Shown here one piece after another: positions 8,209 through 59,410 of a stretch of DNA of 64,000 nucleotides. Positions within the stretch are counted from its first letter, which is position 1, and each line of letters begins with the position of its first letter. Under the pieces are notes generated by a model. That model saw only the letters and a program-made list of their open reading frames with translations, was not told the DNA's origin and did not search any database. The position numbers and the translations under genes were made by a program. This DNA comes from Candidatus Levybacteria bacterium RIFCSPHIGHO2_01_FULL_41_15 (GTDB taxonomy: Bacteria > Patescibacteriota > Microgenomatia > Levybacterales > UBA12049). The stretch covers positions 122,283 through 186,282 of the forward strand of contig MFNV01000009.1 of the NCBI GenBank assembly GCA_001782165.1, in the 5' to 3' direction.

Positions 8209-8343
8209 CAGACCTGCGGGTTCTTAACCCTTTATCCCCCTTTTTTTCAACAGTTTTTCCACATTTTTAAACAGTCCCGTCTTGCTTTTTTCCACTTTTC
8301 CATATAGACTACTACAACTACAAATATTAATATAGTTTTAAAA
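8209..8343. promoter_or_regulatory. dnaA-dnaN spacer: candidate oriC segment
   Basis: Two DnaA-box-like 9-mers, TTTTCCACA at 8255-8263 and TTTTCCACT at 8288-8296. They are followed by an AT-rich stretch (catatagactactacaactacaaatattaatatagttttaaaa). A hairpin plus T-run after dnaA looks like a terminator. Confidence 0.4.
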
Positions 8344-9461: not shown

Positions 9462-9962
9462 TCAGTAATTTTCACAAAAACTTAAAGTTTTCCTGGGTGG
9501 GGCAAGATAGGGGTTTGGGACATATGGAGAGGTTACTTTAACTTCTAGTTGGCAAGCTTCCTCCCTTTTTACTCCAAGCTTTGTAATAAAAGCCATCTCC
9601 GCATTCAGTCTAGTCTGTGAGGAGGAGGTTGATATATTAATTATAAATTGACTAAATCTTGTTAAGTAAGCAATTTGGAAATCTCCTTCTTTGATAAAAA
9701 GCACGTCTCCTTCACTATTGGTTTGTATGGGGCTTTTTAGGAAATTATTTGTTTTGACACCTGAAATAATTATTTTATCTGATTGGGGGATTCTAGTTCT
9801 CTCCTCTATTTTTGTCGGAGTTGGAATCTCCCCCTCTTGTCTTTTGTGTTTTGAAGGAAAGAAGAGGGAGAGGAAAAAATAAATTAACCCTAGAGCAATT
9901 AGGGTTGAAAAAAGAATGATAGCAATTCTCTTCATAGACCTATTTAAAAACTTATACCACAC
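9462..9962 (-). CDS. small bitopic secreted/membrane protein, unknown (possible VirB8-like accessory)
   Basis: 166 aa with an N-terminal TM (IAIILFSTLIALGLIYFFLSLFF) and a ~120-aa ectodomain. It is adjacent to the T4SS-like hydrolase gene. Confidence 0.35.
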   Translation of the reverse strand: MWYKFLNRSMKRIAIILFSTLIALGLIYFFLSLFFPSKHKRQEGEIPTPTKIEERTRIPQSDKIIISGVKTNNFLKSPIQTNSEGDVLFIKEGDFQIAYLTRFSQFIINISTSSSQTRLNAEMAFITKLGVKREEACQLEVKVTSPYVPNPYLAPPRKTLSFCENY

Positions 9963-11752: not shown

Positions 11753-11768
11753 AAGTCAATAATGTAAA

Positions 11769-13784
11769 TTAAGTTTTATTAAAAACCGGAGGGGCTTGGG
11801 GCTGCGCAGCTTGCGGTGTAGGGGAGGGAGCTTCGGGGAGAGACTCAGGAGGTGGAGGTTGTTGGGATGGCTGGGAAGGAGCTTGCTCAACAGGATTTTC
11901 CGGAGGGGAAGCAGCTTCCGCCTGCTCCTGCGATTCTTTTTGCTGGATCAATTCCTGAGGGTTTGAGGTTATTATTGTGTGCTCAAAGGGTGCTGCAATA
12001 ACTTTTATCACAACATGACTTTGTCCTGCAAAAAACAAACCTTCTCCTACATCTGATGAAAGAAGAAGCTCTTTTTCTCCTTGTGAAAGGTAAAAAACTT
12101 TTGAGATAAGATCTATTTCTGTAGGAGACTGTTTAAGAAGCATCTGTATTGATGAATTTGATAAAACTGCATTTCCGTAGTCGGTCGATAAGAAATCCTG
12201 AACATCCTGAGTTGCGGTTGTTAAAGCAAGATAATATTTTCGAGCACGTTTTGCGATTCCATAAACAAAAGACGCTGAATCTTCATATTTCATTATATAC
12301 CAGGCCTCATCTAAGACAAGAAGTCTTTTTTTAAGGCTTTTTCTGATTCTTGTCCAGACAAAATCCAAAATAATGTGCATGGCAATGGGGCGAAGTTCAT
12401 CCTCCAAAGCCTTAATTGAAAAAACGGTGAATGGGTTTGTAATATCAAAATTAGACTGCTGATTGAAAATTCCGGAGAGGCTCCCCTTTATAAATTTTTC
12501 AAGCCTTAAGGCAAGTCCTTTTGCTGTCTGATCCTCCATACCAATTAGAACTTTATATAAGTCTTCCATCAAAGGAGGCTGATTTTTTTGAGTCGAAGGA
12601 TCTGCAGTTACCCCTTTTTGTCTATAGGTTTCAACAAGAGCGCGGTCCAAGATTGCATCCTCGCCTGCAGACAGCTCTCCCATGACTATCCGCAAAAGCC
12701 CATGAAGGGAGAGTATTTTAAGCCCCAGCTCATTTTCGCCTTCCTCATAAAGGCCCGAGAGGTCAAATGGATTTATCTTAATCGGATCGGATGGAGTAAA
12801 GGATACATGTTCTCCGCCCAGTGTTTTGGAAAGAGCTTCGTATTCCCCTTCAGGGTCTATTATTATAACTTCGGTCCCAAACATAAACTGTCTTATGGCC
12901 TCAAGTTTTATCAAGTATGACTTTCCTGCACCCGATTTGCCTAATACCACTTCATTTGCGTTTTCCAAAGAATATCTGTCAAAAACTATTAGTGATCCAT
13001 TCTGCTCATTTATTCCATACATGATTCCCTTATCTTGAGTAAGAGTTGCAGATGTGAAAGGGAAAGTAGAGGCAAGAGAAGTTGTATCCATGTTCCTTGC
13101 AATGTAAAGCTTGTCAACACTTTGTGGAAGGCAAGATTTGAATCCTTCTTCCATTTGAAGTGTGGCAGGTTTTGTTATAAGAAGAATAGAGGATAAGGTT
13201 GATGTGAGTTTTTTTGAGGCCACATCAAGATCCTGTATCGTTTCTGAAAAAAGTGTTATGTAAAGACCGAACTGGAAGAATCTTTCGACTCCCTTTGCCA
13301 GTTGTTCCTGAAGCGAAAGAGCATCTTCCAAAGCTGCCTGAACCTTGGGATCAACTATCTTTCCCTCCTCTGTCTGTGACGAGATTGTTGCTTCCATCTC
13401 GGCAATCTTTCTTCGGATATCAGAAAGCACGTCATTTGAGGAAGCAGGGTAGCAAAACATCGAAACATTCATTGAATGATCAAAATCAATAAGAGGAGAA
13501 AGCCAATTGGGCGAAACAAATCTTGGATAACCTACAACAAAAAAGGTCCTGTAATAAAAATCACCTACTCTTATAAAGTTGAAATCTACTTCAACCGAAG
13601 GTGGGGCAATAATATCAAGAAGGGAGGATGTCCCCTTTTCAAGAATTTTGATTCCCTTTGCTTCTATTGTTTTTGCACCCTGCCTGTCCATTTGTCCTGA
13701 GCTCAGGGTTGAAGGACCGGCAGGCAGATCCTGCAAAGGAGTTTGATTATTGGTTTTTTGTTTTTTGAAATTTAAGAATTTCAT
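11769..13784 (-). CDS. virB4: VirB4/TrbE/CagE-family type IV secretion ATPase
   Basis: 671 aa with Walker A VVLGKSGAGKSYLIK, Walker B LLVLDEAWYIM, and an upstream CagE_TrbE_VirB-like region (RVGDFYYRTFFVVGYP). The C-terminal tail is Pro/Gln-rich. Confidence 0.85.
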   Translation of the reverse strand: MKFLNFKKQKTNNQTPLQDLPAGPSTLSSGQMDRQGAKTIEAKGIKILEKGTSSLLDIIAPPSVEVDFNFIRVGDFYYRTFFVVGYPRFVSPNWLSPLIDFDHSMNVSMFCYPASSNDVLSDIRRKIAEMEATISSQTEEGKIVDPKVQAALEDALSLQEQLAKGVERFFQFGLYITLFSETIQDLDVASKKLTSTLSSILLITKPATLQMEEGFKSCLPQSVDKLYIARNMDTTSLASTFPFTSATLTQDKGIMYGINEQNGSLIVFDRYSLENANEVVLGKSGAGKSYLIKLEAIRQFMFGTEVIIIDPEGEYEALSKTLGGEHVSFTPSDPIKINPFDLSGLYEEGENELGLKILSLHGLLRIVMGELSAGEDAILDRALVETYRQKGVTADPSTQKNQPPLMEDLYKVLIGMEDQTAKGLALRLEKFIKGSLSGIFNQQSNFDITNPFTVFSIKALEDELRPIAMHIILDFVWTRIRKSLKKRLLVLDEAWYIMKYEDSASFVYGIAKRARKYYLALTTATQDVQDFLSTDYGNAVLSNSSIQMLLKQSPTEIDLISKVFYLSQGEKELLLSSDVGEGLFFAGQSHVVIKVIAAPFEHTIITSNPQELIQQKESQEQAEAASPPENPVEQAPSQPSQQPPPPESLPEAPSPTPQAAQPQAPPVFNKT

Positions 13785-14446
13785 ACCTGACTCCCCATTT
13801 TTATAATAGGGGTTTTAAGCTCATCGGTTATTTGATTAGTTTCGATGAGGGATCCGTTGAAGATCTCATAAAAAAGTTTGACCAGCTCTTCCTTCTGAAG
13901 AGTTTTTGCGCGAAGACCTAATCTTGCAAGCTGTGAGTGAACGGAGTCTCCCTTGGAATGAAGAGCTGCCTTTGCCTCTTCAAAAAAGGAGTCTTCGGAT
14001 ATTTGACCGGGCATAGCTTTTTTGGCTGCCCCAACCCCCTTTTCAAGATAGGAATATGGAATAACAATATAAAATTTTTTGTCAAGTACCGTATTTACTT
14101 TGACCAGCTCTCTTATAAAATCCCGGTAAAGCCTTATCTGGGAAGATAAAAGCTGATTTGTTGACCCCTGAGCCTGCTCTTCCAAAAGTTTTAAATAAGA
14201 GGAGATATCAAGCTTTTTGCTTCTTATAAATATCTGAATCGGGAAAGATAGGGAATTAAGAAGAGAAGCATAGGAAAAAACTTTTGTGTCCTGTTCTTCT
14301 TTTGAAAGAAGAGAGAAATTCGTGGCATTGACCTCAATTATAAAACAGGCATTTTTACCCGATAATATAACTATGTCCTCTTCGATTCCCTCAATTTCTA
14401 TAAATTTTTGCGTTGTTGCTCTCTTTTTTTGGGCAGTTTTAGTCAT
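13781..14446 (-). CDS. cytoplasmic T4SS-associated protein, unknown (resembles a VirB4 N-terminal domain)
   Basis: 221 aa with no TM. It is translationally coupled (4-nt overlaps) between the PrgI-like gene and virB4. The segment IEIEGIEEDIVILSGKNACFIIEVNATNFSLLSKEEQDTKVFSYASLLNSL resembles the N-terminal region of VirB4/TraC proteins. Confidence 0.35.
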   Translation of the reverse strand: MTKTAQKKRATTQKFIEIEGIEEDIVILSGKNACFIIEVNATNFSLLSKEEQDTKVFSYASLLNSLSFPIQIFIRSKKLDISSYLKLLEEQAQGSTNQLLSSQIRLYRDFIRELVKVNTVLDKKFYIVIPYSYLEKGVGAAKKAMPGQISEDSFFEEAKAALHSKGDSVHSQLARLGLRAKTLQKEELVKLFYEIFNGSLIETNQITDELKTPIIKMGSQV

Positions 14447-15654
14447 GATTTTTGAACGGGATTAAATAATTCTCTTCTAAGTTCTTCTCTTTTGTCAATT
14501 GAAATTATTTCAAGAGGCATTAAAACTTCACCTCTGGCTTCTATCTCAATAGTATCAAATTTATGTTCTCCCTTGGGATCTTCAAAAAATATAGTGTAAA
14601 CTCCGTTACCTAAGGGGGTTGCCGAAGCAAATTGACCTAAGACATTTGTTTTGAATGCTCTTACAGGATTTCCTTCCTCGTCTTTCACCTCAACAAGTAT
14701 ATTAGGAAGAGGATTATTTCTTGAGTCTTTTGCTATTCCCATAACCAAGTTTGGAACATCGGGAATAAAAGGGAGTCCTGCAGTTTTACTCAATTCTCTC
14801 GGAATTCTTCTTGCATGTTTTGTTTCAGGCTTGGGAGTTATAGTTGAGGGACTATAAATATTTTTTCCCTGCATCTTAAGTTTTTTTCTAAGCTCTATTA
14901 TTTGATTCTCCAAAATTTGTTTTTGTGAAGTCACCTCGCTTAAGACCTTTTCAATCTCAAGAATTTTTTGGTGGGCCATTTGGTATTGTTCTCCCGTCTC
15001 CTGTTTTTTTTCCAGATCCTTGGCTTCCTCAAGCTCTTTCTTGAGAACATCAGCCTTTTTGTCAAGCTCTTTTTCTTCCTCTTTTTTTTTGCCTTCGTCT
15101 GTTAAATTTACATTCTCTCTGATCTGATCTTCAAATATCTTTTCATAACCTCCCAAATTCTCCGATATGTCAGTTGGGGATCCTTTGCTCAAAGAAAGAA
15201 GAGAATTTAAAAAATTAAGCTCTTTTTCATCCAATTTATCTTTTGGTTTTTGGGGAAGATTTTTTAAAAACTCTTTAAGTTTTTGGGTGGAATCGGATGA
15301 AGTCATAAGCTTAGATACTGTTTGTACTTGACTTTCCTTGGGTGGCTTGGGGAACCACATATGACCACCTATTTTCTGATATATATACTGAGTTGGATTA
15401 AATAAAGCTTTTATGTAATTTGAAATCATAAGATCAAACGGCCGACCCTCAATAGGAACAAACGCCGCTCCCACCCCCAGGCCTACAAAAAGAAGAACGA
15501 GGGGGATTTTTATAAGGATAAAAATCGGGAGCGCAAAAGTTATCCAGCCTAGGACAACTCCTGTCGCAAGATAGGCAAATTGCTTAATGGTCATGTCCCC
15601 TATCAGCTTAAACTGAAAACCTGTAATATCTTGGGGAATAGGATGATTTTCCAT
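14443..15654 (-). CDS. PrgI/VirB3-like membrane protein fused to coiled-coil and C-terminal beta-sandwich domain
   Basis: 403 aa. N-terminal region (MTIKQFAYLATGVVLGWITFALP... then a second TM) resembles PrgI/VirB3-type small T4SS membrane components located directly upstream of VirB4. A K/E-rich coiled coil follows, and the C-terminus looks like a carboxypeptidase-regulatory-like fold. The true start is probably the Met at MTIKQ. Confidence 0.4.
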   Translation of the reverse strand: MENHPIPQDITGFQFKLIGDMTIKQFAYLATGVVLGWITFALPIFILIKIPLVLLFVGLGVGAAFVPIEGRPFDLMISNYIKALFNPTQYIYQKIGGHMWFPKPPKESQVQTVSKLMTSSDSTQKLKEFLKNLPQKPKDKLDEKELNFLNSLLSLSKGSPTDISENLGGYEKIFEDQIRENVNLTDEGKKKEEEKELDKKADVLKKELEEAKDLEKKQETGEQYQMAHQKILEIEKVLSEVTSQKQILENQIIELRKKLKMQGKNIYSPSTITPKPETKHARRIPRELSKTAGLPFIPDVPNLVMGIAKDSRNNPLPNILVEVKDEEGNPVRAFKTNVLGQFASATPLGNGVYTIFFEDPKGEHKFDTIEIEARGEVLMPLEIISIDKREELRRELFNPVQKS

Positions 15655-15964
15655 AATTTGAAAAGCAACTAGTTCCTAACCACTAGCGGCTAGTTGCTAT
15701 TTTTAACAGTGTATAACGTGAAAAAAATGCTTTCAAGACAGTCAAAATAGATCAAAAAAGAAAAAAAAGAGGCTAGTGTGAAAACTGAATAGTAAATCAC
15801 AAACTCTAAATAACAAATCCTAAATAATATTTAATTTCAAATGCTCAAAATCCAAAAAATTATTATATTCGAATTTTATACTTTGAATTTATCCTTCGAC
15901 GCTACTCAGGATGGTGAGCTTGTCGAACCATTTGGAGCTTGTAATTTTGGATTTAAGATTTAGT

Positions 15965-16342
15965 CTAATTGCAGTTTCCGAAGCCGAATTGTTTTATGCA
16001 GGAGACGCCAGTCAAAGCGCTTATAAAGTTTATTATTGCAAATGAAAGGAGAATTACAACAAGACCGATAATCGCATACGTAAGAGTTTCCCTTGCTTCT
16101 TTTACTTTATCCTCTGTTCCGCCTGACCTTATGTATTTGATTCCCGACCAGATGATGAAAAAAAGAGCTACTATTCCTCCTCCGACAAGCGCCCAGTTAA
16201 TAACATTCTGAAACACAGTCGGAATACACTGAAGAGTTGCGACGCTGTCTTTTACGCAATCTCCCCAGTCAACACCGGGAATGGTAATTCCGCCCCCTCC
16301 TCCGCCTGGAGGCGGAGGCAGTTTGGCAAGAAGTTTATCCAT
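15965..16342 (-). CDS. VirB2/TrbC-like T4SS pilin paralog 1
   Basis: 125 aa with two TM helices flanking IWSGIKYIRSGGTEDKVKEARETLTYAIIGL, a motif shared by all four paralogs. The N-terminus has a PPPPGGGGGG run. Confidence 0.6.
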   Translation of the reverse strand: MDKLLAKLPPPPGGGGGGITIPGVDWGDCVKDSVATLQCIPTVFQNVINWALVGGGIVALFFIIWSGIKYIRSGGTEDKVKEARETLTYAIIGLVVILLSFAIINFISALTGVSCIKQFGFGNCN

Positions 16343-16401
16343 AGTTTTAGATTAGCAAGAAAATTTTAAAAAAACAAGGAAAGATAGAGAAACTCTAAAT
16401 T

Positions 16402-16800
16402 TTACTGGAGCTTTAATGTGGGAAGAGTGAAGGTGGTTATGGTTTTACCGAGGAAGAATCCGACGACAAGATTCAAAATGAAGTATGCCAAAAAGACTAT
16501 TACAAGGCCGACGACTGCGGCAACAATCGTGTTTCTTGCAGCTTCGACATTAGTTTTATCTCCACCCGACAGAATCCACTTAATCCCTCCCCAAATTAAG
16601 AACCCTAATGCAATAAGAACCGCAAGTATGAAAAGAAGGGTAATAACATTTCCGACTACGTTCCCAAAATTACTTGATGTGAGTTTGCAAAGACCGGCGA
16701 AGTCGCCTGTGGGACAAGTGTCAACTGTATCAGCAAAAGCCAAAGCTGGGGAGAGAAGATAAGATGAAAATGCGGCTGTTGTAGCAATTAATTTTTTCAT
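16402..16800 (-). CDS. VirB2/TrbC-like T4SS pilin paralog 2 (with signal peptide)
   Basis: 132 aa with signal peptide MKKLIATTAAFSSYLLSPALAFA and the pilin core LIWGGIKWILSGGDKTNVEAARNTIVAAVVGL. Confidence 0.65.
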   Translation of the reverse strand: MKKLIATTAAFSSYLLSPALAFADTVDTCPTGDFAGLCKLTSSNFGNVVGNVITLLFILAVLIALGFLIWGGIKWILSGGDKTNVEAARNTIVAAVVGLVIVFLAYFILNLVVGFFLGKTITTFTLPTLKLQ

Positions 16801-16887
16801 CTTTAATTAAATGCTATATAGATTTTCACAGTTTGTCAAGCCCCGATTTAACAATTGAGCAATGGAACAATAGAGCAATTGGATTTT

Positions 16888-17196
16888 CTAGAAAATCCTT
16901 ATATTAAAGAATCCGAAAATAAAGTTTATCATAAAAAATGAAAAAAAAGCAATAATCAAACCTACAACAGAATAAGTCAGTCTAAGTCTTGCCTGTTCAA
17001 TTCTTTGTTTATCTCCGCCTGATGTTATCCATTGAATTCCTGCCTGAATCATATAAAAAAGAGCAAGAAAAATCGCCGCAAGAAGAAGCAAAGTAACTCC
17101 TCCCTGAATGATTTTTGAAATGTTCCCTCCTGTTGGAACCTCGCTAGGCGGCTCAATTTCCCGCCCTCCTATTGTAATAGCTATTTTATTTAACAT
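16888..17196 (-). CDS. VirB2/TrbC-like T4SS pilin paralog 3
   Basis: 102 aa with core MIQAGIQWITSGGDKQRIEQARLRLTYSVVGL. Confidence 0.6.
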   Translation of the reverse strand: MLNKIAITIGGREIEPPSEVPTGGNISKIIQGGVTLLLLAAIFLALFYMIQAGIQWITSGGDKQRIEQARLRLTYSVVGLIIAFFSFFMINFIFGFFNIRIF

Positions 17197-17250
17197 TTCT
17201 TATTTATCATTGATCATTAAAATCGTAAATTATAAATCATCAATCACGTT

Positions 17251-18180
17251 TTATTTTATAAAGTCTGGAATGCGTAAAATGTTAAATCCGATTACTTGAA
17301 GAATCACAAAGGAGAATATTATAAAAACAAGCCCTATTATCGCGGCAATTAGCTGATCCCGCGCTGCCTCCAAAGCTTCAGGTTTGCCCCGCGCTGCTAT
17401 AAGCTGATATCCCGAATAGATTATGAGAAGAAGTGCCAGTCCTCCTGAAAGAGAAAGAATAATACCAAAGATTGATTTTATAAGACCCGATGGATCTGTG
17501 CCAATATCTATTCCAAGGCCGGTTGTTACAGAAGTGCAGATTTTTATTTGTTTTTCATCTGTGGTTAAATTCCCTTCTTTATCAAATCCCTTGGAACAGG
17601 GTGGAGGAGGGGGGCTGGGATCAGGTTCTTCGGGTTTTGGCTTATCTGACTGAGGAGAGCAAATTGTATCATATTTCTCAATTTCCAACGTCCATGTCTG
17701 CAGAATTGTTTTTTTAAACTTATCCTTATCAAGGTTGGCTACTAACCCGCATGAATAAACCTTACACTCAGAATTAGCTGGATCGCAGAGTTGGGAATAA
17801 AGACATCTGTCATTATCAGTTAAACCAGAATCATCTCCGCATTTGCCATCAGAAGATATAGGAGGAAGACATCTATACACTCCGTCATTTTCCCTGCAGT
17901 TAAATTCCTGACATCCTGCATCTGTGCAGGGCTGGGTTGACAGGCAAAACGGCGAATTTTCATCGTTGCATTCTATAGGGGAGTTATAAGGATTCGTTTG
18001 GGGGGCAGGGCCTCCGCCTGTATCTCCTGTCTCTACTGCCAAAGAGGGCGGGGGTTTGAAAATTAAAATAAGGAGAATTATTACAACAACTCTTAGAATT
18101 TGTCCCACAATTTTATAGTAGACAAGTTGAGAATACTTTGCAAGAGCCGTCAAGCTATGCTTGGAATTTTCAATTTTCAA
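17251..18180 (-). CDS. Cys-rich ectodomain fused to C-terminal VirB2/TrbC-like pilin domain
   Basis: 309 aa. An N-terminal TM anchor is followed by a ~170-aa domain with ~22 Cys and a PPPPP linker. The C-terminal 70 aa are a pilin core (IIYSGYQLIAARGKPEALEAARDQLIAAIIGL). The start is a TTG embedded in a 7-nt x4 tandem repeat, so the 5' boundary is uncertain. Confidence 0.55.
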   Translation of the reverse strand: MKIENSKHSLTALAKYSQLVYYKIVGQILRVVVIILLILIFKPPPSLAVETGDTGGGPAPQTNPYNSPIECNDENSPFCLSTQPCTDAGCQEFNCRENDGVYRCLPPISSDGKCGDDSGLTDNDRCLYSQLCDPANSECKVYSCGLVANLDKDKFKKTILQTWTLEIEKYDTICSPQSDKPKPEEPDPSPPPPPCSKGFDKEGNLTTDEKQIKICTSVTTGLGIDIGTDPSGLIKSIFGIILSLSGGLALLLIIYSGYQLIAARGKPEALEAARDQLIAAIIGLVFIIFSFVILQVIGFNILRIPDFIK

Positions 18181-18266
18181 TTTTCAATTTTCAATGAATT
18201 TTTAATGTTTCAAGCTTTAAATTTTAAAAACTTAGATTTGATTTCAAATTTCAAATTTAAAATTAT

Positions 18267-19619
18267 TTATGGTGTAAATTTTATTCCTCTTCCCTTAATT
18301 GTTTGCAAGTGAGATGGATTATTGGGGTCGTCTTCTATTTTTTTTCGAAGGCGAAAGATTAGCTGATCCAGAGCTTGATCGGTTACTCCTTCTGTTGATT
18401 TTGAATTTTTCCACACGGCGTTTATTACTTCCTCCCTTTCTACAATTTTATCTTTATTCTCAATCAGGAACTTAAGGAGCTTAAATTCGGAAGAGGTCAG
18501 AATATCAGAAAGGATACTATCTCCCTTTTTTATCTCGTTGGTGATAGGGTCAAACGAAATGACTTGATTACCCAATTGTTCGATTACCGTGATGAATTTT
18601 TCAAAAAGGGGAATTGAGATTTTACTGTTTTCTATTAATCCAACGTTTTGTAAATAGCCACTAGAAATTAGTTGGTTAGCAATTAGTGATTTCTGTTCGG
18701 AAGGTGTTAAGGAATACAAAATCTCATAAAGAGAACCTCTTATCGTTTTTTGCTCAAGCAAAAAACTCTGTAACCCTATTCTGGTTGCTAGTTGCCAATT
18801 GCTAGTCGCTAATCTTGTCTCAAGACAAAGCCTTGTTAATTTTCCGTGGCCTGCGGTTAGTGAAATTATTTTGTTAGTTAGTTTTTCGTTTATTCTTTTA
18901 CCGCTTACTTTTTCAAGGTATGAGATTCGGAAATCAAGACCGGGCTTGTCAAATAGCGGTAAATAAACGATGTTTCCTGCCAAAAATTCATAAAAATCCG
19001 AGAAAAGCATTGGTTCTATCAAATCCTCAAGGGGTCTATTAAGAGAAAAAACAACAGAGAATCTGTATTTTGCCCTGTTTCTCAAGATTCTAAGATTGGC
19101 AAAAAATTCAGATGAGAGCATTGGTACATATTCTTCAAATCTGTCAAACAGAAAGACTACTGTAAGTTCTTTCTCAATACAAAGGTAATCAATTGCTTTT
19201 TTAAGGCCCCCAAACAAAACCATCTCGTCATTGGTCAGAAGCGATTCTTTGAAAATCTTATCCATGGTTTCATGTTCCTGCATTTTTCTTTCTCTTAATG
19301 AATCAACAAGTGAAAGGAAGATGAATTTTGTTGCCTCAAATAAGGGCTTTTTTCTAATCTCCGAAAAATTTAAGAGGACAAAATGAAACCATTTCTGGTC
19401 TTCTCCTAAATGTTTTAACCGGACAGTGCGGTTATAAGATAAAAGACCCAAAAGATTTGATCTTCCAACCCCGGGAAGACCAATAAGCTGAGCCGATTTT
19501 CCTTCCTTTGCAAACCTTAAGATTTTTTCTATTTCATCAAATCTTGAATTTTCAGGGTATAATGATTCGAAATGAGCCAGTTCACTACCATCGACCATTG
19601 ATGATTTATTATTTACCAT
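18267..19619 (-). CDS. putative transcriptional regulator: N-terminal P-loop NTPase-like (STAND/AAA-like) + C-terminal OmpR/PhoB-type winged helix
   Basis: 450 aa. A degenerate Walker A (LIGLPGVGRSNLLGLL) and hhhhD (VVFLFDRFEE) sit at the N-terminus. The C-terminal ~95 aa (SSEFKLLKFLIENKDKIVEREEVINAVWKN...ALDQLIFRLRKKIEDDP...LQTIKGRGIKF) is a clear trans_reg_C wHTH. Confidence 0.55.
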   Translation of the reverse strand: MVNNKSSMVDGSELAHFESLYPENSRFDEIEKILRFAKEGKSAQLIGLPGVGRSNLLGLLSYNRTVRLKHLGEDQKWFHFVLLNFSEIRKKPLFEATKFIFLSLVDSLRERKMQEHETMDKIFKESLLTNDEMVLFGGLKKAIDYLCIEKELTVVFLFDRFEEYVPMLSSEFFANLRILRNRAKYRFSVVFSLNRPLEDLIEPMLFSDFYEFLAGNIVYLPLFDKPGLDFRISYLEKVSGKRINEKLTNKIISLTAGHGKLTRLCLETRLATSNWQLATRIGLQSFLLEQKTIRGSLYEILYSLTPSEQKSLIANQLISSGYLQNVGLIENSKISIPLFEKFITVIEQLGNQVISFDPITNEIKKGDSILSDILTSSEFKLLKFLIENKDKIVEREEVINAVWKNSKSTEGVTDQALDQLIFRLRKKIEDDPNNPSHLQTIKGRGIKFTP

Positions 19620-24773: not shown

Positions 24774-24861
24774 TGCGGAGGAGAGGAGATTCGAACTCCT
24801 GATACGGTTGCCCGTAAACCTGCTCTCCAAGCAAGCGCCATAGGCCACTAGGCGACTCCTC
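24774..24861 (-). tRNA. tRNA-Ser (anticodon GGA)
   Basis: Manual fold: acceptor GGAGGAG/CTCCTCC, anticodon loop TTGGAGA, long variable arm, T-loop TTCGAAT. CCA is not encoded. Confidence 0.8.
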
Positions 24862-24965
24862 CAAAATTAAATTCCAAAATTCGAAATCTTGAATCCTAAA
24901 TAAATCCTAAACCCAAAATTACAAATTTCAAACGATTGGACAATTTAGCAGTCCTTATTATATCA

Positions 24966-25382
24966 TCAGATCAATTTTCTTGCGTTTTGCCAAACTTGCC
25001 TGTCAGATTTATATGTAAGTCTTTCTTCAACTTTTTCAAGAGGGATCCATTCAACGTTCTGCATTTCCCAGTCATGCTCTTTGGTGTCTCCTGACCCGTG
25101 CTCCATAAGAAAATAATAAACAGTTTTTTTAATCTTTTGACCTTGAAAATTATACCAGTATGTAACAGGCTGTAAAGCTTTAATTATTTTCCCATTTATC
25201 CCTGTTTCTTCCTTAACTTCTCTTATTGCAGTTTCTTCTTTACTTTCTTTCTTTTTATGGTCACCGATTACCCCTTTAGGAAATACCCATCCGTGATGGC
25301 CTGAATGCTGAGCGACAAGAATAAATATCTTATCTTTAGATTTTTTATATACTATTCCACCGGCAGAGAACTCGAATTTCAT
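24966..25382 (-). CDS. NUDIX hydrolase
   Basis: 138 aa with the Nudix box GWVFPKGVIGDHKKKESKEETAIREVKEETG. Confidence 0.85.
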   Translation of the reverse strand: MKFEFSAGGIVYKKSKDKIFILVAQHSGHHGWVFPKGVIGDHKKKESKEETAIREVKEETGINGKIIKALQPVTYWYNFQGQKIKKTVYYFLMEHGSGDTKEHDWEMQNVEWIPLEKVEERLTYKSDRQVWQNARKLI

Positions 25383-25496
25383 TTCTTACCCCTCTGTTAA
25401 TATTGGTTTAGTCCACGCTTGTCTTCGCTGACGCTTCGCAAGCGAGCTCCGTCGCTTCGCCCCGTACCAGTCTGGTACAGGGCTTCGCTCGTCCGC

Positions 25497-25522
25497 TCCA
25501 CCTGCAGAAAATTCAAACTTCA
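25497..25522. repeat. direct repeat copy 1 (ccacctgcagaaaattcaaacttcat); on the minus strand it encodes MKFEFSAGG
   Basis: 25/26 identical to the copy at 26056-26081. Both re-encode the first 9 residues of the adjacent NUDIX gene with different synonymous codons. Confidence 0.6.
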
Positions 25523-25529
25523 TGATACA

Positions 25530-25763
25530 TTAGTCTTTCAATAATTTAATAAACTCATCTCTGCCCACCCGTAGATCTCTCTTTATTATTTTTGTTAATA
25601 ATCCGATACCGATCACTTGCGCAGGATGGATTGGAATAGTAGTTCTTCTTCCGTCAGGATGCATATAAATTGCGTGGCTTCCGCTTTGATCGCGAAAAGT
25701 AAATCCAAGTCTTAACACTACCTTAACTAATTCTCTTGCTTTGACTTGAGGAAGTTTTGGCAT
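25530..25763 (-). CDS. hicA: HicA mRNA interferase toxin
   Basis: 77 aa; ...GFTFRDQSGSHAIYMHPDGRRTTIPIHP... matches the HicA/YcfA family. Confidence 0.75.
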   Translation of the reverse strand: MPKLPQVKARELVKVVLRLGFTFRDQSGSHAIYMHPDGRRTTIPIHPAQVIGIGLLTKIIKRDLRVGRDEFIKLLKD

Positions 25764-26014
25764 TAGATAGATACTTCAAGCGAAGTCATACTTACGGGTT
25801 CAACTTTTGGAATATCCTGATGTTCTTTGCGAAGAACCTTTAAATGCAGTTTGATTGCGTCGCGAATATTAGTAATTGCCTGTTCAAGTGTTTTTCCTTG
25901 CGTATGACATCCTGCAAGATCTGGGCAGTCTGCCACAAAAAATCCATCCTCATCCTTTTCAATGATAACCGGAAATTTATAGGTAGTAGTTTTTATTTTT
26001 TGCATTTTTCCCAT
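25763..26014 (-). CDS. hicB: HicB antitoxin (UPF0150 family)
   Basis: 83 aa; KFPVIIEKDEDGFFVADCPDLAGCHTQGKTLEQAITNIRDAIKLHL. Its stop overlaps the hicA start. Confidence 0.7.
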   Translation of the reverse strand: MGKMQKIKTTTYKFPVIIEKDEDGFFVADCPDLAGCHTQGKTLEQAITNIRDAIKLHLKVLRKEHQDIPKVEPVSMTSLEVSI

Positions 26015-26055
26015 ATACTTATTATAACATTTTTAGTTCTTTCCTGCCGACAACT

Positions 26056-26081
26056 CCGCCTGCAGAAAATTCAAACTTCAT
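26056..26081. repeat. direct repeat copy 2 (ccgcctgcagaaaattcaaacttcat), abutting the 3' end of tRNA-Ser(CGA)
   Basis: Read directly; on the minus strand it opens a 19-codon mini-ORF MKFEFSAGGVVGRKELKML*. Confidence 0.6.
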
Positions 26082-26082
26082 G

Positions 26083-26166
26083 CGGAGGGTACAGGATTCG
26101 AACCTGTGAGGGATTACTCCCACGAGTTTTCGAAACTCGCGCCTTAAACCGCTCGGCCAACCCTCC
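26083..26166 (-). tRNA. tRNA-Ser (anticodon CGA)
   Basis: Acceptor GGAGGGT/ACCCTCC, anticodon loop TTCGAAA, long variable arm, T-loop TTCGAAT, discriminator G. Confidence 0.8.
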
Positions 26167-26181
26167 AATTTTATTAAATTG

Positions 26182-26255
26182 CACCCTCGAAAGGATTCGA
26201 ACCTTCGACCTCGACGTCCGCAACGTCGCGCTCTATCCAACTGAGCTACGAGGGC
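26182..26255 (-). tRNA. tRNA-Arg (anticodon GCG)
   Basis: Manual fold: acceptor GCCCTCG/CGAGGGT (G1-U72), D-arm GCTCAGTTGGATAGAGC, anticodon stem-loop CGACG-TTGCGGA-CGTCG, 5-nt variable loop, T-loop TTCGAAT. Confidence 0.6.
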
Positions 26256-26341
26256 ATCCTCTAACCGTCCCGCCAGAGGCGGGATGCTACTATCCGTTGA
26301 ACTACGGGCACAAAGTGGTTTTTATTCTATCTAATTTTAGA

Positions 26342-26953
26342 TTATGAAGCAACTTTTGTGTTCTCAAGAGGAAAATTTTTGGAAAGAAAATTTCCTGCAT
26401 TTTCCATAAAAGTAGGTTTTATCACCTCTCTATAGGGAAGATACGGTAGGAGAACAGATCTTACGTGCTCTACGTCAAGGTTGCCAAGCGGAACAGTCAA
26501 AACACCCGGAATAAAAGCATGCGTTCTCACATGAAGAACTTCTATTCCTTCCACCCTTTTAAAATAAAAATCATAAAGCTCCTGCCATAAAAAGAAATGA
26601 TCTTCAATTGTTATGCCCTCTGTTGAGATCCGATAATGAAAATTATGAGGGGGGACAATGGCAAGTGCAAAGGCAACAAAAACAAGAGACAGGACTACAA
26701 GCATCAAAAGATATTGGGAGAATAAAAATAAAATAACTTGGACAAGAAGCATTATAAGAAGGCTAGTTAGAAAGTATTGCTTAGTTCTTTTCTTGTACGG
26801 TCTTCCGGGAGCGGTCCAGGACAAAAGGGTTTTTATATGGGGATATTGCGTTTCCGCCTGAAGTTCTAAAGGCTCTTTGGGAAGGTCTGCCTTGCCGGCA
26901 GGCAGGTCTCTGGCTTCTTTGGGAAATAATTTTTCCTCTTTTTGGGCAGCCAT
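26342..26953 (-). CDS. membrane protein of unknown function
   Basis: 203 aa with two central TM helices and a ~100-aa C-terminal domain. Confidence 0.4.
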   Translation of the reverse strand: MAAQKEEKLFPKEARDLPAGKADLPKEPLELQAETQYPHIKTLLSWTAPGRPYKKRTKQYFLTSLLIMLLVQVILFLFSQYLLMLVVLSLVFVAFALAIVPPHNFHYRISTEGITIEDHFFLWQELYDFYFKRVEGIEVLHVRTHAFIPGVLTVPLGNLDVEHVRSVLLPYLPYREVIKPTFMENAGNFLSKNFPLENTKVAS

Positions 26954-27000
26954 AAGTTTAATTTATAGGATTAGGAGGAATTAGTCAATGGCGAATAGAA

Positions 27001-27327
27001 CTAGATTCTGGCAGCGTAATTGAAGGCGTAAAAGTATTTTTTAAAAGAGCTATCAGTGGAAAGATATTGATTGTCTAAATACCAGTCAACAAGAACCTCT
27101 CGCATACGGCATAGTTCTTTGAGCCGCATGCGGTTTTTTGGGTCTTTTAGAGTTAGATCAATTAGCTCCAATGCCCGCTCGAATGCCAATTTTTGATATT
27201 GTTTATTACCTTTATTCTTCCAGATTATAGTCCGCTCAACTTCACTACCTATATTAGCCATTTGTTCTACGAGCCTCATATTAAACCAGTGTTTTTTGGA
27301 TAAATTTTTATGATAGATAAGATTCAT
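27001..27327 (-). CDS. small hypothetical protein (downstream member of an overlapping two-gene module)
   Basis: 108 aa, predicted helical. Its start overlaps the upstream 113-aa ORF by 4 nt (ATGA). Confidence 0.35.
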   Translation of the reverse strand: MNLIYHKNLSKKHWFNMRLVEQMANIGSEVERTIIWKNKGNKQYQKLAFERALELIDLTLKDPKNRMRLKELCRMREVLVDWYLDNQYLSTDSSFKKYFYAFNYAARI

Positions 27328-27665
27328 CTTTGAACTAACTTATTTATTATTTGAATTATTTTTTTTTGAATTTTCGGATCATCAACACCACGAGAGTAAT
27401 TGTCTTGTGATGGCTTAAGATTGATCATTGAATCAAATTCGATAAAATCATCGCCCTTTTTTTCTGGATAGAGATTAATACCCCATAAATCTTCCTGCTT
27501 AGATCCACGCTGCAATAAATATTGCTCTTCGTCGGCATGCAGTTCGGCGTTGATCACCATTATTTCTTTTTTAACATCAATAACTGCCTTGACCAAAATA
27601 CCAAACATTCTTTTGGCCATTCTTTTAATTTCTAGAATACTGATTTTTTTTTCAACAACTTTCAT
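27324..27665 (-). CDS. small hypothetical protein (upstream member of an overlapping two-gene module)
   Basis: 113 aa, translationally coupled to the 108-aa ORF. Architecture is toxin-antitoxin-like, but no family was recognised. Confidence 0.35.
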   Translation of the reverse strand: MKVVEKKISILEIKRMAKRMFGILVKAVIDVKKEIMVINAELHADEEQYLLQRGSKQEDLWGINLYPEKKGDDFIEFDSMINLKPSQDNYSRGVDDPKIQKKIIQIINKLVQR

Positions 27666-27892
27666 AAAACCATTCTAACATGCCAAAGATATTGCTTCAA
27701 TGATTTGATCCCGGGGATCATGGCAGAGGAGTATTATTTTCTGTTGGAGTTTAAGATTTTTTCTAGTCGATTTCTTATGTTTACCAACTGGCGGTGGGAG
27801 TGAGATTCACTTCGGCTCCGCTCAGTGTAAACTTCTCATCCCATTTACACTTCGCCAATCTCAGAACATAAAGTCCTGAGCTTGTCGAAGGG

Positions 27893-27979
27893 CGGTGGGA
27901 GTGAGATTCGAACTCACGGCGGCATTGCTGCCACAATGGTTTTCAAGACCATCCGGATAAACCACTCCCGCATCCCACC
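27893..27979 (-). tRNA. tRNA-Ser (anticodon TGA)
   Basis: Acceptor GGTGGGA/TCCCACC, anticodon stem-loop ATGGT-CTTGAAA-ACCAT, long variable arm, T-loop TTCGAAT. Confidence 0.8.
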
Positions 27980-27984
27980 AAATG

Positions 27985-28072
27985 CGGAGAGGGTGGGATT
28001 CGAACCCACGCGAGCCTTGCGGCTCAGGGGATTAGCAATCCCCCGCAATGGACCAAACTATGCGACCTCTCC
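27985..28072 (-). tRNA. tRNA-Ser (anticodon GCT)
   Basis: Acceptor GGAGAGG/CCTCTCC, anticodon stem-loop GGGGA-TTGCTAA-TCCCC, long variable arm, T-loop TTCGAAT. Confidence 0.8.
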
Positions 28073-28152: not shown

Positions 28153-28848
28153 GTGGATTTCTTAGATATCTTTTTCCCAAAATATTGCGTAAATTGTAAA
28201 AAATTGGGCGATTATATTTGCTCTGACTGTTTTTCCTTTCTGTCTTTTGATGTGGAGAAGATTTGCGCTGTTTGTAACCTCCCTACTTTTAATAACCTGA
28301 CTCACCCAAGGTGCAGGAAAAGATATACGATTGACGGAGTTTTTTCAAGTATTTCCTATAAGGGGACAGCCAAAAAACTGATCTATAACTTCAAATATAA
28401 CCCCTATGTTTCGGATTTGGAAAAACTTTTGACGGACATTTTTTACGAAGGACTTATCCAAAAAGAGGAGTTTCACAAAGTTTTAAATTCTCAAAAAGTA
28501 GTTTTGGTGCCAATTCCGCTCTATCATTTAAGAGAAAGAAAAAGGGGATACAACCATGCTTCTATTTTAGCTGAGCAAATTTCAAAGAAATTAAATATCC
28601 CTGTTTGTAAAGTTTTAGAGCGCATAAAAAACACAAAAACACAAGTAAATTTAGACAAGGAGGAGAGGAAAAAAAATTTAAAAAATGCTTTTGTGATTGC
28701 CCCTGAGTTCAAAAATAAACTTAAAGGCAGAGAGGTTTTTCTAGTGGATGATGTATTTACCACTGGCTCAACCCTTTTGGAGGCGGCAAATACTTTAAAA
28801 AGAAGCGGAGTAAAAAAGGTCTTCGGTTTGACTTTAGCGAGGGGTTGA
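28153..28848 (+). CDS. comFC: ComF-family protein (double zinc-ribbon + phosphoribosyltransferase domain)
   Basis: 231 aa with an N-terminal CxxC...CxxC pair and C-terminal PRTase motif VFLVDDVFTTGSTL. Confidence 0.75.
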   Translation: MDFLDIFFPKYCVNCKKLGDYICSDCFSFLSFDVEKICAVCNLPTFNNLTHPRCRKRYTIDGVFSSISYKGTAKKLIYNFKYNPYVSDLEKLLTDIFYEGLIQKEEFHKVLNSQKVVLVPIPLYHLRERKRGYNHASILAEQISKKLNIPVCKVLERIKNTKTQVNLDKEERKKNLKNAFVIAPEFKNKLKGREVFLVDDVFTTGSTLLEAANTLKRSGVKKVFGLTLARG

Positions 28849-28866
28849 GATATAATACGCCTACTT

Positions 28867-29266
28867 GGGGATGCATTGCATCGACAGGAAAGCACATTAA
28901 AAACTGCAAGCCGACTTTGATGACAGTCGTCCCGCTGATAGTTTTCAGTCGGGATCCCGCCATCGGCGGTGATAAAACAGGGTCAAAAAATAAATGCTAA
29001 CGATCAAAAGTTAGCGTACGCATTTGCTTATAATTAAGTAATTTCGTACTGTTCATTAAATCTTTTCTCAACGAGATTTTATGGGCATAAATAAAGTTGA
29101 GATATAAATAAAAAGTTGGTTGGCTTTTTATCCGAAAATTTCAACCTTTGCTTTGTTTGTTTCCTTCCGATTTGGAGAAAATAAAGCGAGACTTAAAAAT
29201 CGGATAAGCTTGTAGATGTTTTTGGTTCGGCTTTCTTGGACTCGAGCTCACAGCTCGACATCTCCA
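28867..29266 (+). ncRNA. ssrA: tmRNA (transfer-messenger RNA)
   Basis: 5' GGGGAUG...AUCGACAGG tRNA-like start. 3' T-stem-loop TCGAG-CTCACAG-CTCGA, then CATCTCC-A, giving a G3-U70 wobble and A73 discriminator (tRNA-Ala identity). The internal AAAAAAUAAAU-GCU AAC GAU... block parallels E. coli AAAAAAUAGUC-GCA AAC GAC. Predicted tag reading frame 28996-29037 encodes (A)NDQKLAYAFAYN*. The element sits in a 490-bp ORF-free gap 1.0 kb from smpB. Confidence 0.65.
28931..28978 (+). repeat. 48-nt double-hairpin element, copy A (inside the tmRNA pseudoknot-1 region)
   Basis: gtcccgctgatagttttcagtcgggatcccgccatcggcggtgat has two stem-loops. A second copy lies at 53656-53703 with compensatory changes. 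Confidence 0.5.
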
Positions 29267-29341
29267 CACTACGCCCACGATTTCATAGGGGCTCCGCGTG
29301 GTAAACCACACTTTAATCTTTTGTTCCCATTCTTTTAATGC

Positions 29342-29626
29342 ATGCGAAGTGTGTGCCGCGAAACTTCAGTGAAGTGGTACAATTTATCTGTGTATTACGT
29401 TTACATTCTAAGACTCAACGACAGATCATATTATCATGGTTACTCTACGGATCTTAAAAAAAGACTAAAGTACCACAGACAAGGGTTAATTCCATCAACA
29501 AAGAACTTCCGTCCAGTAAAACTAATTTTTTATTCTGCTTTTGAATCAAAAACTAAAGCTCTTGAGTTTGAAAAATACTTAAAATCCAGCTCGGGTTTTG
29601 CTTTTCGAAACAAACATCTAATTTAA
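29342..29626 (+). CDS. GIY-YIG nuclease-domain protein (YhbQ/UPF0213-like)
   Basis: 94 aa; YYVYILRLNDRSYYHGYSTDLKKRLKYHRQG...TKNFRPVKLIFYSAFESKTKALEFEKYLKSSSG. Confidence 0.7.
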   Translation: MRSVCRETSVKWYNLSVYYVYILRLNDRSYYHGYSTDLKKRLKYHRQGLIPSTKNFRPVKLIFYSAFESKTKALEFEKYLKSSSGFAFRNKHLI

Positions 29627-29696: not shown

Positions 29697-30251
29697 ATGG
29701 TAACAACTGAGCTCCAAAGAAAGTTGCATGCGAACGACTATCCTCATGCTGAAGAATTGAGGGGAAGATTGGTCCCAGTTTATCACATAACTGACAAGGA
29801 CGCCTTACCTTCCATAATGCAAACTGGATTATCTGCCTCTAGAGACAAGAGCAGAAGCGCAAAAATGTATAAGGAAGAGAGAAGAATAGTCGATGGGATA
29901 ATTGATAGGTTCGTTTTTAAACTTTGGCCGGGATTCTCAAGAACCGATGCTATTTACGCTGATCTTGAACCAGCAATCCGCATTGTGCCTTTTAGATGGC
30001 AAACAACAAATTTAGAAGTGATGGTTGACCCCAGTAAAGTTTTGGTTGTTGATCAATGGTATTATGATGAGACAAGAGGAGCTCTTCAACGGCATAAATT
30101 AAGGGAAGTAGTTTGGAATGCAAGGCAATACTGGAAGACAGCAGTAACGCTTCAAGAATATAGAGCTCGGGGTGGGGGATTATTTGCTATACCAGAAGTT
30201 ATTATACCCAACCCGGTTGGCATAGGAAGACTAAGAGTATTAAATGATTGA
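29697..30251 (+). CDS. hypothetical protein with ADP-ribosyltransferase-fold-like N-terminus (DarT/DUF4433-like or Tpt1-like), orphan
   Basis: 184 aa. VPVYHITDKDALPSIMQTGLSAS ... ERR ... IDRFVFKLWPGFSR resembles the YHITH..NL.SIL..G.L / ...VPFYFCP blocks of DarT-type ARTs. No DarG/macrodomain partner is nearby. This is a memory-based motif match only. Confidence 0.3.
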   Translation: MVTTELQRKLHANDYPHAEELRGRLVPVYHITDKDALPSIMQTGLSASRDKSRSAKMYKEERRIVDGIIDRFVFKLWPGFSRTDAIYADLEPAIRIVPFRWQTTNLEVMVDPSKVLVVDQWYYDETRGALQRHKLREVVWNARQYWKTAVTLQEYRARGGGLFAIPEVIIPNPVGIGRLRVLND

Positions 30252-30257
30252 AGAAGA

Positions 30258-30689
30258 TTAGGCTAACTCCCGCTCGACATCGCGCTCTATATCCTTCTTC
30301 TTCTTTGCTTCTTTTTTCTCAAATTCTTTCTTTCCTTTTCCCAAACCAAGCGCTACTTTTATAAAATTTTTGGTTGTGTAAATCGAAAGAGGGATAATGG
30401 ATAGATTGGAACCTTCAGTTCTGCCTTTTAGAGCTATTATCTCTTTTTTGTGAAGAAGTAGTTTTCTTGTTCTTCTTTCATCATACCCCTCCGGTCTTGC
30501 GTATTGATAGGGGAAAATTTTCGCATTTATTAAATACGCCTCGCTTCCAATTATTTTAACAAAACTTCCTTTTAAATCTGCCATCCCAAGTCTTACAGCT
30601 TTTACTTCTGCGCCTATCAGATTTATACCGGCCTCAACTTTTTCAAGAACTTGATAATCAAAAAATGCTTTTTTATTTACTATTTTCAT
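30258..30689 (-). CDS. smpB: SsrA-binding protein SmpB
   Basis: 143 aa; KKAFFDYQVLEKVEAGINLIGAEVKAVRLG... and a basic C-terminal tail. Confidence 0.9.
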   Translation of the reverse strand: MKIVNKKAFFDYQVLEKVEAGINLIGAEVKAVRLGMADLKGSFVKIIGSEAYLINAKIFPYQYARPEGYDERRTRKLLLHKKEIIALKGRTEGSNLSIIPLSIYTTKNFIKVALGLGKGKKEFEKKEAKKKKDIERDVERELA

Positions 30690-58864: not shown

Positions 58865-59410
58865 ATGAATAAAGATTTTGCTAATAATTTAGTTAATACC
58901 CCAGATTACGAGCATGAACCTTTCGATATGAGTGAACTAAAACCTTTAACTGTTTATCCTAATGCAATGAATTCTGGCGCAGCTATTTATCCAGCAACTA
59001 TAGTTGAAGGACCGATAGATAATTTCGGAACAGCAGTTGCTCAAGGCAATATGGGTCAAGATTTTTATCCTACTACGGTTAGCGGGACTACCTCTGTTTA
59101 TTCAAATTCTAATATTAATTCATGCACTTCGGTCTCGTTAAGGACTATTTCAGAGGGCTTTCATAAAGGAGATGGACATAATCTAGGAGAATTGTCGGGG
59201 TCAACCTTTCTAGCTAAGCCCACCACAGAGCAATATCAAACCAAAGATAAAAGCTGTACAAATAGTAAATCTAATTTTTATAAAATAGAAATTAAATATG
59301 ACCTTGCCAAAAAGCCTAACTACAAAAACGCAGATCAAATTGCAAAAGTGGATTTACACAAATTTCTTAGATACAGCCACGTGCAGTTTCTAGCTGAATA
59401 TTATTTATGA
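58865..59410 (+). CDS. hypothetical protein in the nrdR-nrdJ operon
   Basis: 181 aa, rich in Ser/Thr/Asn; its stop overlaps the nrdJ start. Confidence 0.4.
   Translation: MNKDFANNLVNTPDYEHEPFDMSELKPLTVYPNAMNSGAAIYPATIVEGPIDNFGTAVAQGNMGQDFYPTTVSGTTSVYSNSNINSCTSVSLRTISEGFHKGDGHNLGELSGSTFLAKPTTEQYQTKDKSCTNSKSNFYKIEIKYDLAKKPNYKNADQIAKVDLHKFLRYSHVQFLAEYYL

Follow-up and report, generated by a model that had tools for sequence, protein, structure and literature searches.

A transfer-messenger RNA with a reshaped T-arm and a predicted Tyr-Asn tag end in Candidatus Levybacteria

Can a transfer-messenger RNA (tmRNA) whose T-loop departs from the usual sequence, and whose proteolysis tag appears to end in an unusual residue, be the working tmRNA of its organism? 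The question is raised by a locus of Candidatus Levybacteria bacterium RIFCSPHIGHO2_01_FULL_41_15, located in a 64,000-nucleotide stretch of contig MFNV01000009.1 (positions 122,283 to 186,282 of the forward strand), here called the window. An original prediction, made from the letters of this stretch, had proposed a tmRNA gene (ssrA) with the non-canonical T-loop CUCACAG and with a tag ending in neither -LAA nor -VAA. The explanation developed here, in which the gene is functional, its T-arm is remodelled throughout the clade and its asparagine tag end is kept by selection, is judged on balance probable when taken as a whole, its parts being of unequal strength.

Identification of the tmRNA gene

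The Rfam tmRNA family RF00023, whose gathering score is 47 bits, matches positions 28867-29269 of the + strand at 113.4 bits (E 1.6e-43) over model positions 1-374 of 374. This covariance-model search, suggested together with the prediction, bears out the tmRNA call at the coordinates first proposed, and the acceptor stem is read as had been described.

28867..29266, + strand: tmRNA (ssrA) gene, mature 5' end through discriminator A (RF00023 match)
28867..28873, + strand: 5' strand of the acceptor stem, GGGGAUG, in which G3 pairs with U70 (read from the sequence and the covariance model)
29259..29266, + strand: 3' strand of the acceptor stem, CAUCUCC, with the discriminator A at 29266 (read from the sequence)

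The 7-bp acceptor stem carries the G3-U70 pair and the discriminator A of alanine identity. The model alignment pairs the T stem-loop, helix 2 and the elements of the tRNA-like domain, including the stemless D-loop, and places the consensus resume codon GCa on the GCU at 28996. The regions of the putative pseudoknots PK1-PK4 are aligned at moderate posterior probability, and a candidate PK1 can be drawn by eye. With the standard one-piece tmRNA (RF00023; E. coli SsrA with SmpB), the gene shares the full-length family match, G3-U70 and the discriminator A, the stemless D-loop, after which come the GAC...GGA junction and a long helix 2, the GCN resume codon with A-rich sequence ahead of it, a short open reading frame (ORF) ending with UAA in a hairpin, and an adjoining smpB. 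It differs in several respects: the standard T-arm has a 5-bp stem and a 7-nt loop with U54 and A58, whereas that of the window is paired over 6 bp around a 5-nt loop; GG is missing from the D-loop; 43 extra nucleotides lie in PK1; CCA is not encoded, the genome having CAC after the discriminator A although the model match runs to 29269; and the predicted tag ends in Tyr-Asn instead of Ala-Ala.

Relatives were collected in two ways. Among GTDB species representatives, 22 smpB-anchored loci with full-length tmRNA homologues (nhmmer, with the window tmRNA as query) were picked via SmpB and not on any tmRNA feature; the nearest SmpB relatives in this sample are Candidatus Levybacteria, of the Microgenomates within the candidate phyla radiation (CPR), at no more than 84% identity. 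A metagenome scan with the 5' 23-mer GGGGATGCATTGCATCGACAGGA, identical to that of the window, added 41 further loci; this pattern is independent of the tag and the T-arm, yet it enriches for near relatives of the window. Counts for the elbow of the tRNA-like domain refer to 58 full-length Levybacteria/Gottesmanbacteria tmRNAs (the clade), with 19 tmRNAs of the same locus set as outgroup, and counts for tags refer to 63 readable tags, 51 of them distinct. Individual loci are given L numbers.

The use of ARAGORN, the other check that had been suggested, fared differently: it calls five tRNAs in the window and no tmRNA. Across the clade, ARAGORN detects 12 of the 58 tmRNAs (about 80% are missed), none of them with C or G at position 54. 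Its silence was therefore rejected as an argument against a tmRNA, and the miss in the window is attributed to the unusual T-arm, that is, to a failure of the detector. Annotation by ARAGORN alone would wrongly report the clade as lacking tmRNA. Patescibacteria tmRNAs number 5,275 instances in 6,765 genomes in the current database, which has 97,179 sequences (PMC11915505).

The window belongs to a metagenome-assembled genome, and the gene goes uncalled by ARAGORN; an assembly or sequencing artefact could accordingly underlie the unusual tag end, the unusual T-loop or the two together, or the locus could be a decaying pseudogene copy. The probability of this is negligible. The gene is identical at 403/403 nt in 7 assemblies (six from ENA, and NCBI GCA_001783985.1), found by exact-protein look-ups of SmpB and of its ComF-like neighbour, and some of these assemblies differ in gene content beyond the ComF-like ORF with the tmRNA unchanged. 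Since the same gene stands in all 7 assemblies, assembly error was rejected for both oddities. Decay is also countered by the Tyr-Asn extension, which is in frame and separated from the closest relative by substitutions with no indel, by compensatory T-arm changes over 25 distinct sequences, and by the combination of a full-length model match, an adjoining smpB and a strong promoter-like site. The locus is thus almost certainly the organism's working tmRNA, as far as sequence comparison can tell.

A remodelled elbow in the tRNA-like domain

Few RNA tertiary motifs are as conserved as the elbow formed by the T-loop and the D-loop, and SmpB binding and function reportedly require both the T-loop motif and the D-loop GG. 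In the window, the two partners are as follows.

29242..29258, + strand: T-arm, with a 6-bp stem UCGAGC/GCUCGA and a 5-nt loop UCACA (covariation over 25 distinct T-arms)
28874..28882, + strand: reduced D-loop CAUUGCAUC, with a single G and no GG (covariance-model alignment and clade count)

Written as 5 bp and a 7-nt loop, the T-arm is UCGAG-CUCACAG-CUCGA. The non-canonical loop first described thus stands as a reading of the letters, and is better understood as a 6-bp stem with a 5-nt loop in which C54 and G60 are paired. The 58 clade members have 28 distinct T-arms, in which the 7-nt loop takes the form N-U-C-A-Y-N-N with complementary first and last positions. When the 25 distinct T-arms of standard length were aligned and counted as a 6-bp helix, a standard pair was found in 98.7% of cells, with both-sided changes at each of the six pairs. 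The sixth pair, at tRNA positions 54:60, is GC in 8 T-arms, UG in 7, AU in 3, CG in 3, UA in 2 and another combination in 2. The observed covariation score and percentage paired were reached by 0 of 500 shuffles, and pairing falls to 57% or less once the 3' partner is shifted by 1 to 3 columns. Since 54:60 covaries as a pair by all these measures, the T-arm of the whole clade is very probably a 6-bp stem closed by a 5-nt loop U-C-A-Y-N.

If 54 and 60 form a Watson-Crick pair, there can be no reverse-Hoogsteen pair U54-A58, by which the T-loop motif is defined. In the clade, position 58 is a pyrimidine and the U54-A58 pair is absent. E. coli tmRNA carries m5U54 (PMC3968760); with U at position 54 in just 23 of the 58 clade members, this modification cannot be general among them.

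The redesign typified by CUCACAG is common to all 58 sampled relatives and goes together with the loss of the D-loop GG, which occurs in none of the 58; most of them read CAUUGCAUC, with one invariant G. In the outgroup, GG is present in 16 of the 19 tmRNAs, and all 16 have a 7-nt UUCRANN T-loop. Both the canonical T-loop (U54, U55, C56, R57, A58) and the D-loop GG are thus missing from the window gene, features that are typical of the tmRNA family and were not treated as defining it. The five tRNAs of the window all have GG D-loops and UUCGAAU T-loops, so that the remodelling is specific to the tmRNA. From these sequences we infer loss of the G18-type intercalation and of the T-loop motif, a G-C56 contact being the most that would join the two loops. 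No sign of pairing between T-loop positions 58/59 and the D-loop was seen among the pattern-selected relatives, in which the D-loop is constant and 58/59 vary.

Two of the three outgroup tmRNAs that have no GG, from Nealsonbacteria (L025) and Wolfebacteria (L036), resemble the clade in combining this loss with a shortened T-loop, here of 6 nt (UUCAAU). They keep U54 and a 5-bp stem, whereas the Levybacteria have the covarying sixth pair and a pyrimidine in place of A58. Elbow reduction in CPR tmRNAs may be more widespread, and take several forms. Searches of the open-access literature, a restriction that makes this negative a weak one, turned up no description of a tmRNA T-arm with a covarying 54:60 pair and a pentaloop. 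A clade with a 6-bp stem and a pentaloop would show what SmpB, EF-Tu, alanyl-tRNA synthetase and the ribosome tolerate, and the remodelled elbow offers a natural test case for a minimal tRNA-like domain.

The tag reading frame and its asparagine end

The second peculiarity lies in the tag, for which the following features are needed.

28996..29034, + strand: tag reading frame, GCU and 12 codons, encoding ANDQKLAYAFAYN, in front of which the charged Ala is added (covariance model and translation)
29035..29037, + strand: stop codon in use, UAA, within the 3' strand of the stop-codon hairpin (alignment with L097 and fold)
29016..29049, + strand: stop-codon hairpin GUACG...UUGCUUA-UAAU-UAAGUAA...CGUAC (minimum-free-energy folds and collinear sequences)

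The resume context AAAAAAUAAAU is followed by GCU at 28996-28998, and the frame GCU AAC GAU CAA AAG UUA GCG UAC GCA UUU GCU UAU AAU UAA gives ANDQKLAYAFAYN. The tag ORF is thus built as expected, an A-rich/UAAAU context leading into a GCN resume codon and a stop codon closing the frame. Resume codon and frame agree with those first proposed, RF00023 using the same GCU, and so does the departure from -LAA/-VAA, the tag ending ...F-A-Y-N. An out-of-frame UAA lies within UAUAAU, and the ribosome might accordingly use a different frame or resume codon, giving the tag a different end. This is most improbable: the covariance model puts the consensus resume codon on the GCU at 28996, stop codons cut the other two frames short after 1 or 5 codons, and the upstream context ...AAAUAAAU|GCU is kept in nearly all 63 relatives, whose own frame gives alanine-first tags with YAYA, YAFA or LALAA motifs. 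Because the frame is conserved across the 63 relatives, the translated tag very probably ends in Tyr-Asn.

How such an end could arise is suggested by the closest relative, L097, whose SmpB is 87% identical to that of the window and whose tmRNA is 88% identical over aligned positions, the value for the tmRNA body being 78%. Its tag, ANDNRYAYAFA, ends in Ala. The relevant stretch reads ...GCG UAC GCA UUU GCU UAA ACU UAA GUA AUU UCG UAC in L097 and ...GCG UAC GCA UUU GCU UAU AAU UAA GUA AUU UCG UAC in the window, so that the first UAA of L097 is UAU in the window (29029-29031), and the sequence after the second UAA is the same in both (GUAAUUUCGUAC). Both fold into the same hairpin, GUACG...UUGCUUA-NNNN-UAAGUAA...CGUAC, and their two differences both fall in the tetraloop (AACU vs UAAU). 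As the 5' strand of the hairpin ends in ...CUUA, its complementary 3' strand must begin with UAAG, and with a loop of 4 nt the UAA of the 3' strand lies in frame as a backup stop. According to the predicted fold, one loop substitution is enough to switch between ...YAFA and ...YAFA-Y-N with the RNA structure uncompromised. A frameshift origin of -YN was considered and rejected, the extension being in frame and collinear with L097.

Among the 22 GTDB relatives, all tags stop at UAA, and 19 end in Ala (...YAYA, ...YAFA, ...LAYA, ...LALAA), two in Val and one in Ser. The metagenomic relatives include 13 Asn-ended tags. With the window included, Asn-ended tags make up 14 of the 63 (10 of the 51 distinct tags), the rest ending in Ala (46), Val (2) or Ser (1). 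The suggestion that the tag is atypical for its lineage holds, 46 of the 63 ending in Ala, but the window is not unique, since the Asn-ended class recurs, as the following endings show.

...YAFAYN: the window
...MPLYAYN: L096, L126
...APAYAYN: L106
...LAYAYVN: L104, L114
...AYAPQNAYVN: L101, L110, L116, L118, L122, L125
...SQNAYLN: L111
...AQAYVN: L117

These tags share a terminal A-Y-(V/L)-N behind very different upstream sequences. Some sit on longer extensions, e.g., ...AYAYAPQNAYVN. The terminal Asn codon is AAU in some tags and AAC in others, and L096 and L126 are separated by several synonymous changes with LAYMPLYAYN kept. In searches of the open-access literature, again a weak basis for a negative, no account was found of an Asn-terminated tag class, nor of the protease repertoire of the CPR. 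Two other kinds of tag end were recorded in passing. The Val-ended tags are those of L009 (...LALAV) and L129 (...YAFAV). The tag of L003 ends ...FATAALS, from GCU UUA AGC UAA UAA; compared with the usual GCU UAA GC it has an extra U, and it may be frameshifted.

The spread of the Asn-ended class was followed on a neighbour-joining tree of SmpB with 100 bootstraps, which replaced a neighbour-joining tree of the tmRNA body too poorly resolved for counting origins. The window groups with L110, L118, L126, L097, L101 and L122 (89/100), and 6 of these 7 have Asn-ended tags, hence L097 may be a revertant. Elsewhere, Asn-ended L114 groups with Ala-ended L107 (97/100), Asn-ended L096 with Ala-ended L014 (99/100), and Asn-ended L125 with Ala-ended L132 and L105 (95/100); Asn-ended L106 takes one further position, which has no bootstrap support. 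Asn-ended tags occur in at least three well-supported SmpB lineages (89-99/100). In two cases, tag and body disagree. The tmRNA body of L125 is 94% identical to that of L132, while its tag coding sequence is 92% identical to that of L101 and 54% to that of L132. Likewise, the body of L096 is 91% identical to that of L014 and its tag coding sequence 84% identical to that of L126. Such discordance, seen in one contig per case (Ga0182027_10010068 for L125, Ga0302253_1009766 for L096), would reflect either an exchange of the tag segment across species or chimeric contigs.

Is the Asn ending selected, or is it a tolerated accident? The loss of the first stop takes one base, a backup UAA stands two codons on, and selection might act on ribosome rescue while the end of the tag drifts. 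Such drift would fit the single tetraloop substitution that turns ...YAFA-stop into ...YAFAYN-stop, the canonical-looking YAFA still directly upstream, and the Ala-ended L097 within a mostly Asn-ended core clade, which points to easy switching; moreover, M. pneumoniae with a proteolysis-resistant tag is viable, unlike knockouts (PMC8403727). We nonetheless rate drift as rather unlikely. Ten distinct tags with very different upstream parts have the same terminal A-Y-(V/L)-N, distributed over three SmpB lineages (89-99/100) and one unsupported position. Both Asn codons are used, some of the extensions are longer, as in ...AYAYAPQNAYVN, and the version of the window is invariant in the 7 assemblies, whereas random stop loss would not repeatedly leave Asn last. 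Because the class is recurrent, shares its motif and uses both Asn codons, these sequences lean towards selection as what keeps the Asn ending.

Which protease might read the tag? ClpX reads a C-terminal LAA-COOH. The N-terminal A-ANDxx of the window tag resembles the AANDENY of the E. coli ClpXP/SspB degron AANDENYALAA. However, the C-terminal LAA-COOH is missing, the last residue is the polar Asn, and clpX, clpP and sspB are not in the window. A closer likeness is to the Lon-degraded tags of Mycoplasma/Mesoplasma (...NYAFA; Gur & Sauer 2008 and Ge & Karzai 2009, cited in PMC8403727), which share with the window a reduced genome, a Tyr/Phe/Ala-rich composition and YAFA. Many Levybacteria tags end in ...YAFA, ...YAYA or ...LYA. 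The window tag differs in having 13 encoded residues against 27 in M. pneumoniae and two residues after YAFA. In mycoplasma, whose genome has no ClpXP, it is Lon that degrades the aromatic-rich tags (PMC8403727). The window tag, ...LAYAFAYN, agrees with the description of an aromatic/hydrophobic-rich, YAFA-like tag, and ...L/V-A-A-COOH is not found in it. By this analogy, tagged proteins might be degraded by a Lon-type reader of the YA(Y/F)A segment and not by a ClpX-type reader of LAA-COOH, a proposal to which we give slightly less than an even chance.

Family knowledge suggests how the RNA would work. It would be transcribed from the TTGACT-17-TATAAT site and processed at its ends, receive CCA from the CCA-adding enzyme, and be charged with alanine by alanyl-tRNA synthetase through G3-U70 and the discriminator A. 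Together with SmpB and EF-Tu it would enter stalled ribosomes, where translation would resume on GCU (28996), add Ala-ANDQKLAYAFAYN and terminate at UAA (29035); the first stop being UAU in the window, Tyr-Asn would be added.

Several points weigh against the explanation as a whole. The 41 metagenomic relatives over-sample near relatives of the window, having been found through the 23-nt 5' pattern, and Asn-ended tags number 0 of 22 among the GTDB species representatives found through SmpB. Just two Asn codons exist, which makes the evidence from synonymous changes thin, and the conservation of UAU AAY UAA could partly reflect shared descent or an RNA-level constraint from the hairpin rather than selection on the peptide. 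The 7 assemblies may stem from related sites or overlapping read sets. As to the elbow, the structural effect of the 54:60 pair is deduced from covariation and not from a structure. As to proteolysis, the Lon-type step is by analogy only: Clp, Lon, FtsH and SspB genes are absent from the 64-kb window (Pfam, 30 window ORFs), and in tblastn searches with E. coli ClpP, ClpX, Lon, FtsH and SspB against 1.65 Mb of related loci, only non-Levybacteria loci match, nulls that cover the window and the related loci and say nothing about the whole genome.

A broader proposal, tentative and doubtful, would unite these elements. In a Levybacteria subclade, the degron would have moved from ...Y-A-COOH to ...A-Y-(V/L)-N-COOH, implying a protease or adaptor with changed C-terminal specificity; the tag segment would have been exchanged between species, L125 and L096 carrying an Asn tag in the body and with the SmpB of an Ala lineage; and the tRNA-like domain would do without the T-loop motif and the D-loop GG. 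Asn-ended tags would represent an unexplored C-terminal degron, and suggest recognition that does not depend on a terminal Ala in reduced genomes.

Genomic surroundings and further features

The tmRNA gene is flanked by a promoter-like site and by smpB, and carries an insertion in PK1.

28828..28856, + strand: sigma-70-type promoter-like site TTGACT-17-TATAAT, with 11/12 matches, ending 10 nt upstream of the mature 5' end (consensus match)
30258..30689, - strand: smpB, 143 aa, convergent with the tmRNA gene (Pfam SmpB PF01668, E 1.1e-45)
28931..28973, + strand: 43-nt insertion in the PK1 loop (alignment with the six closest relatives; fold)

The promoter-like site overlaps the 3' end of the ComF-like ORF, and such sites are no more frequent in the region than expected from shuffles. 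The smpB gene lies about 1 kb from the tmRNA gene, and the two are linked in 50 of the 50 relatives in which both were seen. In 39 of these 50, smpB is directly followed by the tmRNA gene on its own strand; in the clade of the window, the two are usually convergent, with a spacer of 0.4-1 kb. The order ORF578-smpB-tmRNA-ComF is conserved across the clade. In the window, the spacer between smpB and the tmRNA gene holds a GIY-YIG ORF (29342-29626, 94 aa, Pfam E 1.3e-15), homologues of which lie near the tmRNA gene in many relatives, and ORF184 (29697-30251, 184 aa), with no Pfam match. ORF184 was considered as a factor linked to the tag class and rejected: it occurs only in the window, in L097 (Ala-ended) and in L004, and shows no association. 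The final 22 nt of the tmRNA gene are repeated nowhere in the window at up to 5 mismatches, so that nothing points to an island integrated at its 3' end.

The PK1 insertion is specific to the species: all 7 same-species assemblies have it, and none of the six closest relatives does. Its predicted fold consists of two small hairpins, CCCGCUGA...UCAGUCGGG and CCGCC-AUC-GGCGG.

Some features of the wider neighbourhood were noted in addition. Just upstream of the tmRNA gene, the ComF-like ORF is called as 139 aa in the same-species assemblies L082, L085 and L086 and as 231 aa in the window, and the genes that lie past it in L082 are different ones (Hint_2, VIT1). On the - strand, four tRNA-Ser (GGA, CGA, UGA, GCU) and a tRNA-Arg(GCG) lie within 3.3 kb (24775-28072) with small ORFs between them; this cluster includes a HicA/HicB toxin-antitoxin pair at 25530-26014 (Pfam labels from same-species contigs). 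An AdoCbl-II (cobalamin) riboswitch aptamer (RF01689, 55.5 bits) is found at 61961-62041 (+), directly after a ribonucleotide reductase ORF (59407-61959) and overlapping the start of the next ORF (61989-62681). The dnaA-dnaN genes at 6862-9456 probably mark the replication origin region, and adjoin a block resembling conjugation or type IV secretion systems (9944-19619) with a TraG/VirB4-like P-loop ATPase, PrgI, a lysozyme-like SLT_3 protein and a type IV secretion system pilin. A GC-rich patch at 10-12 kb has a GC content of 0.50, against about 0.37.

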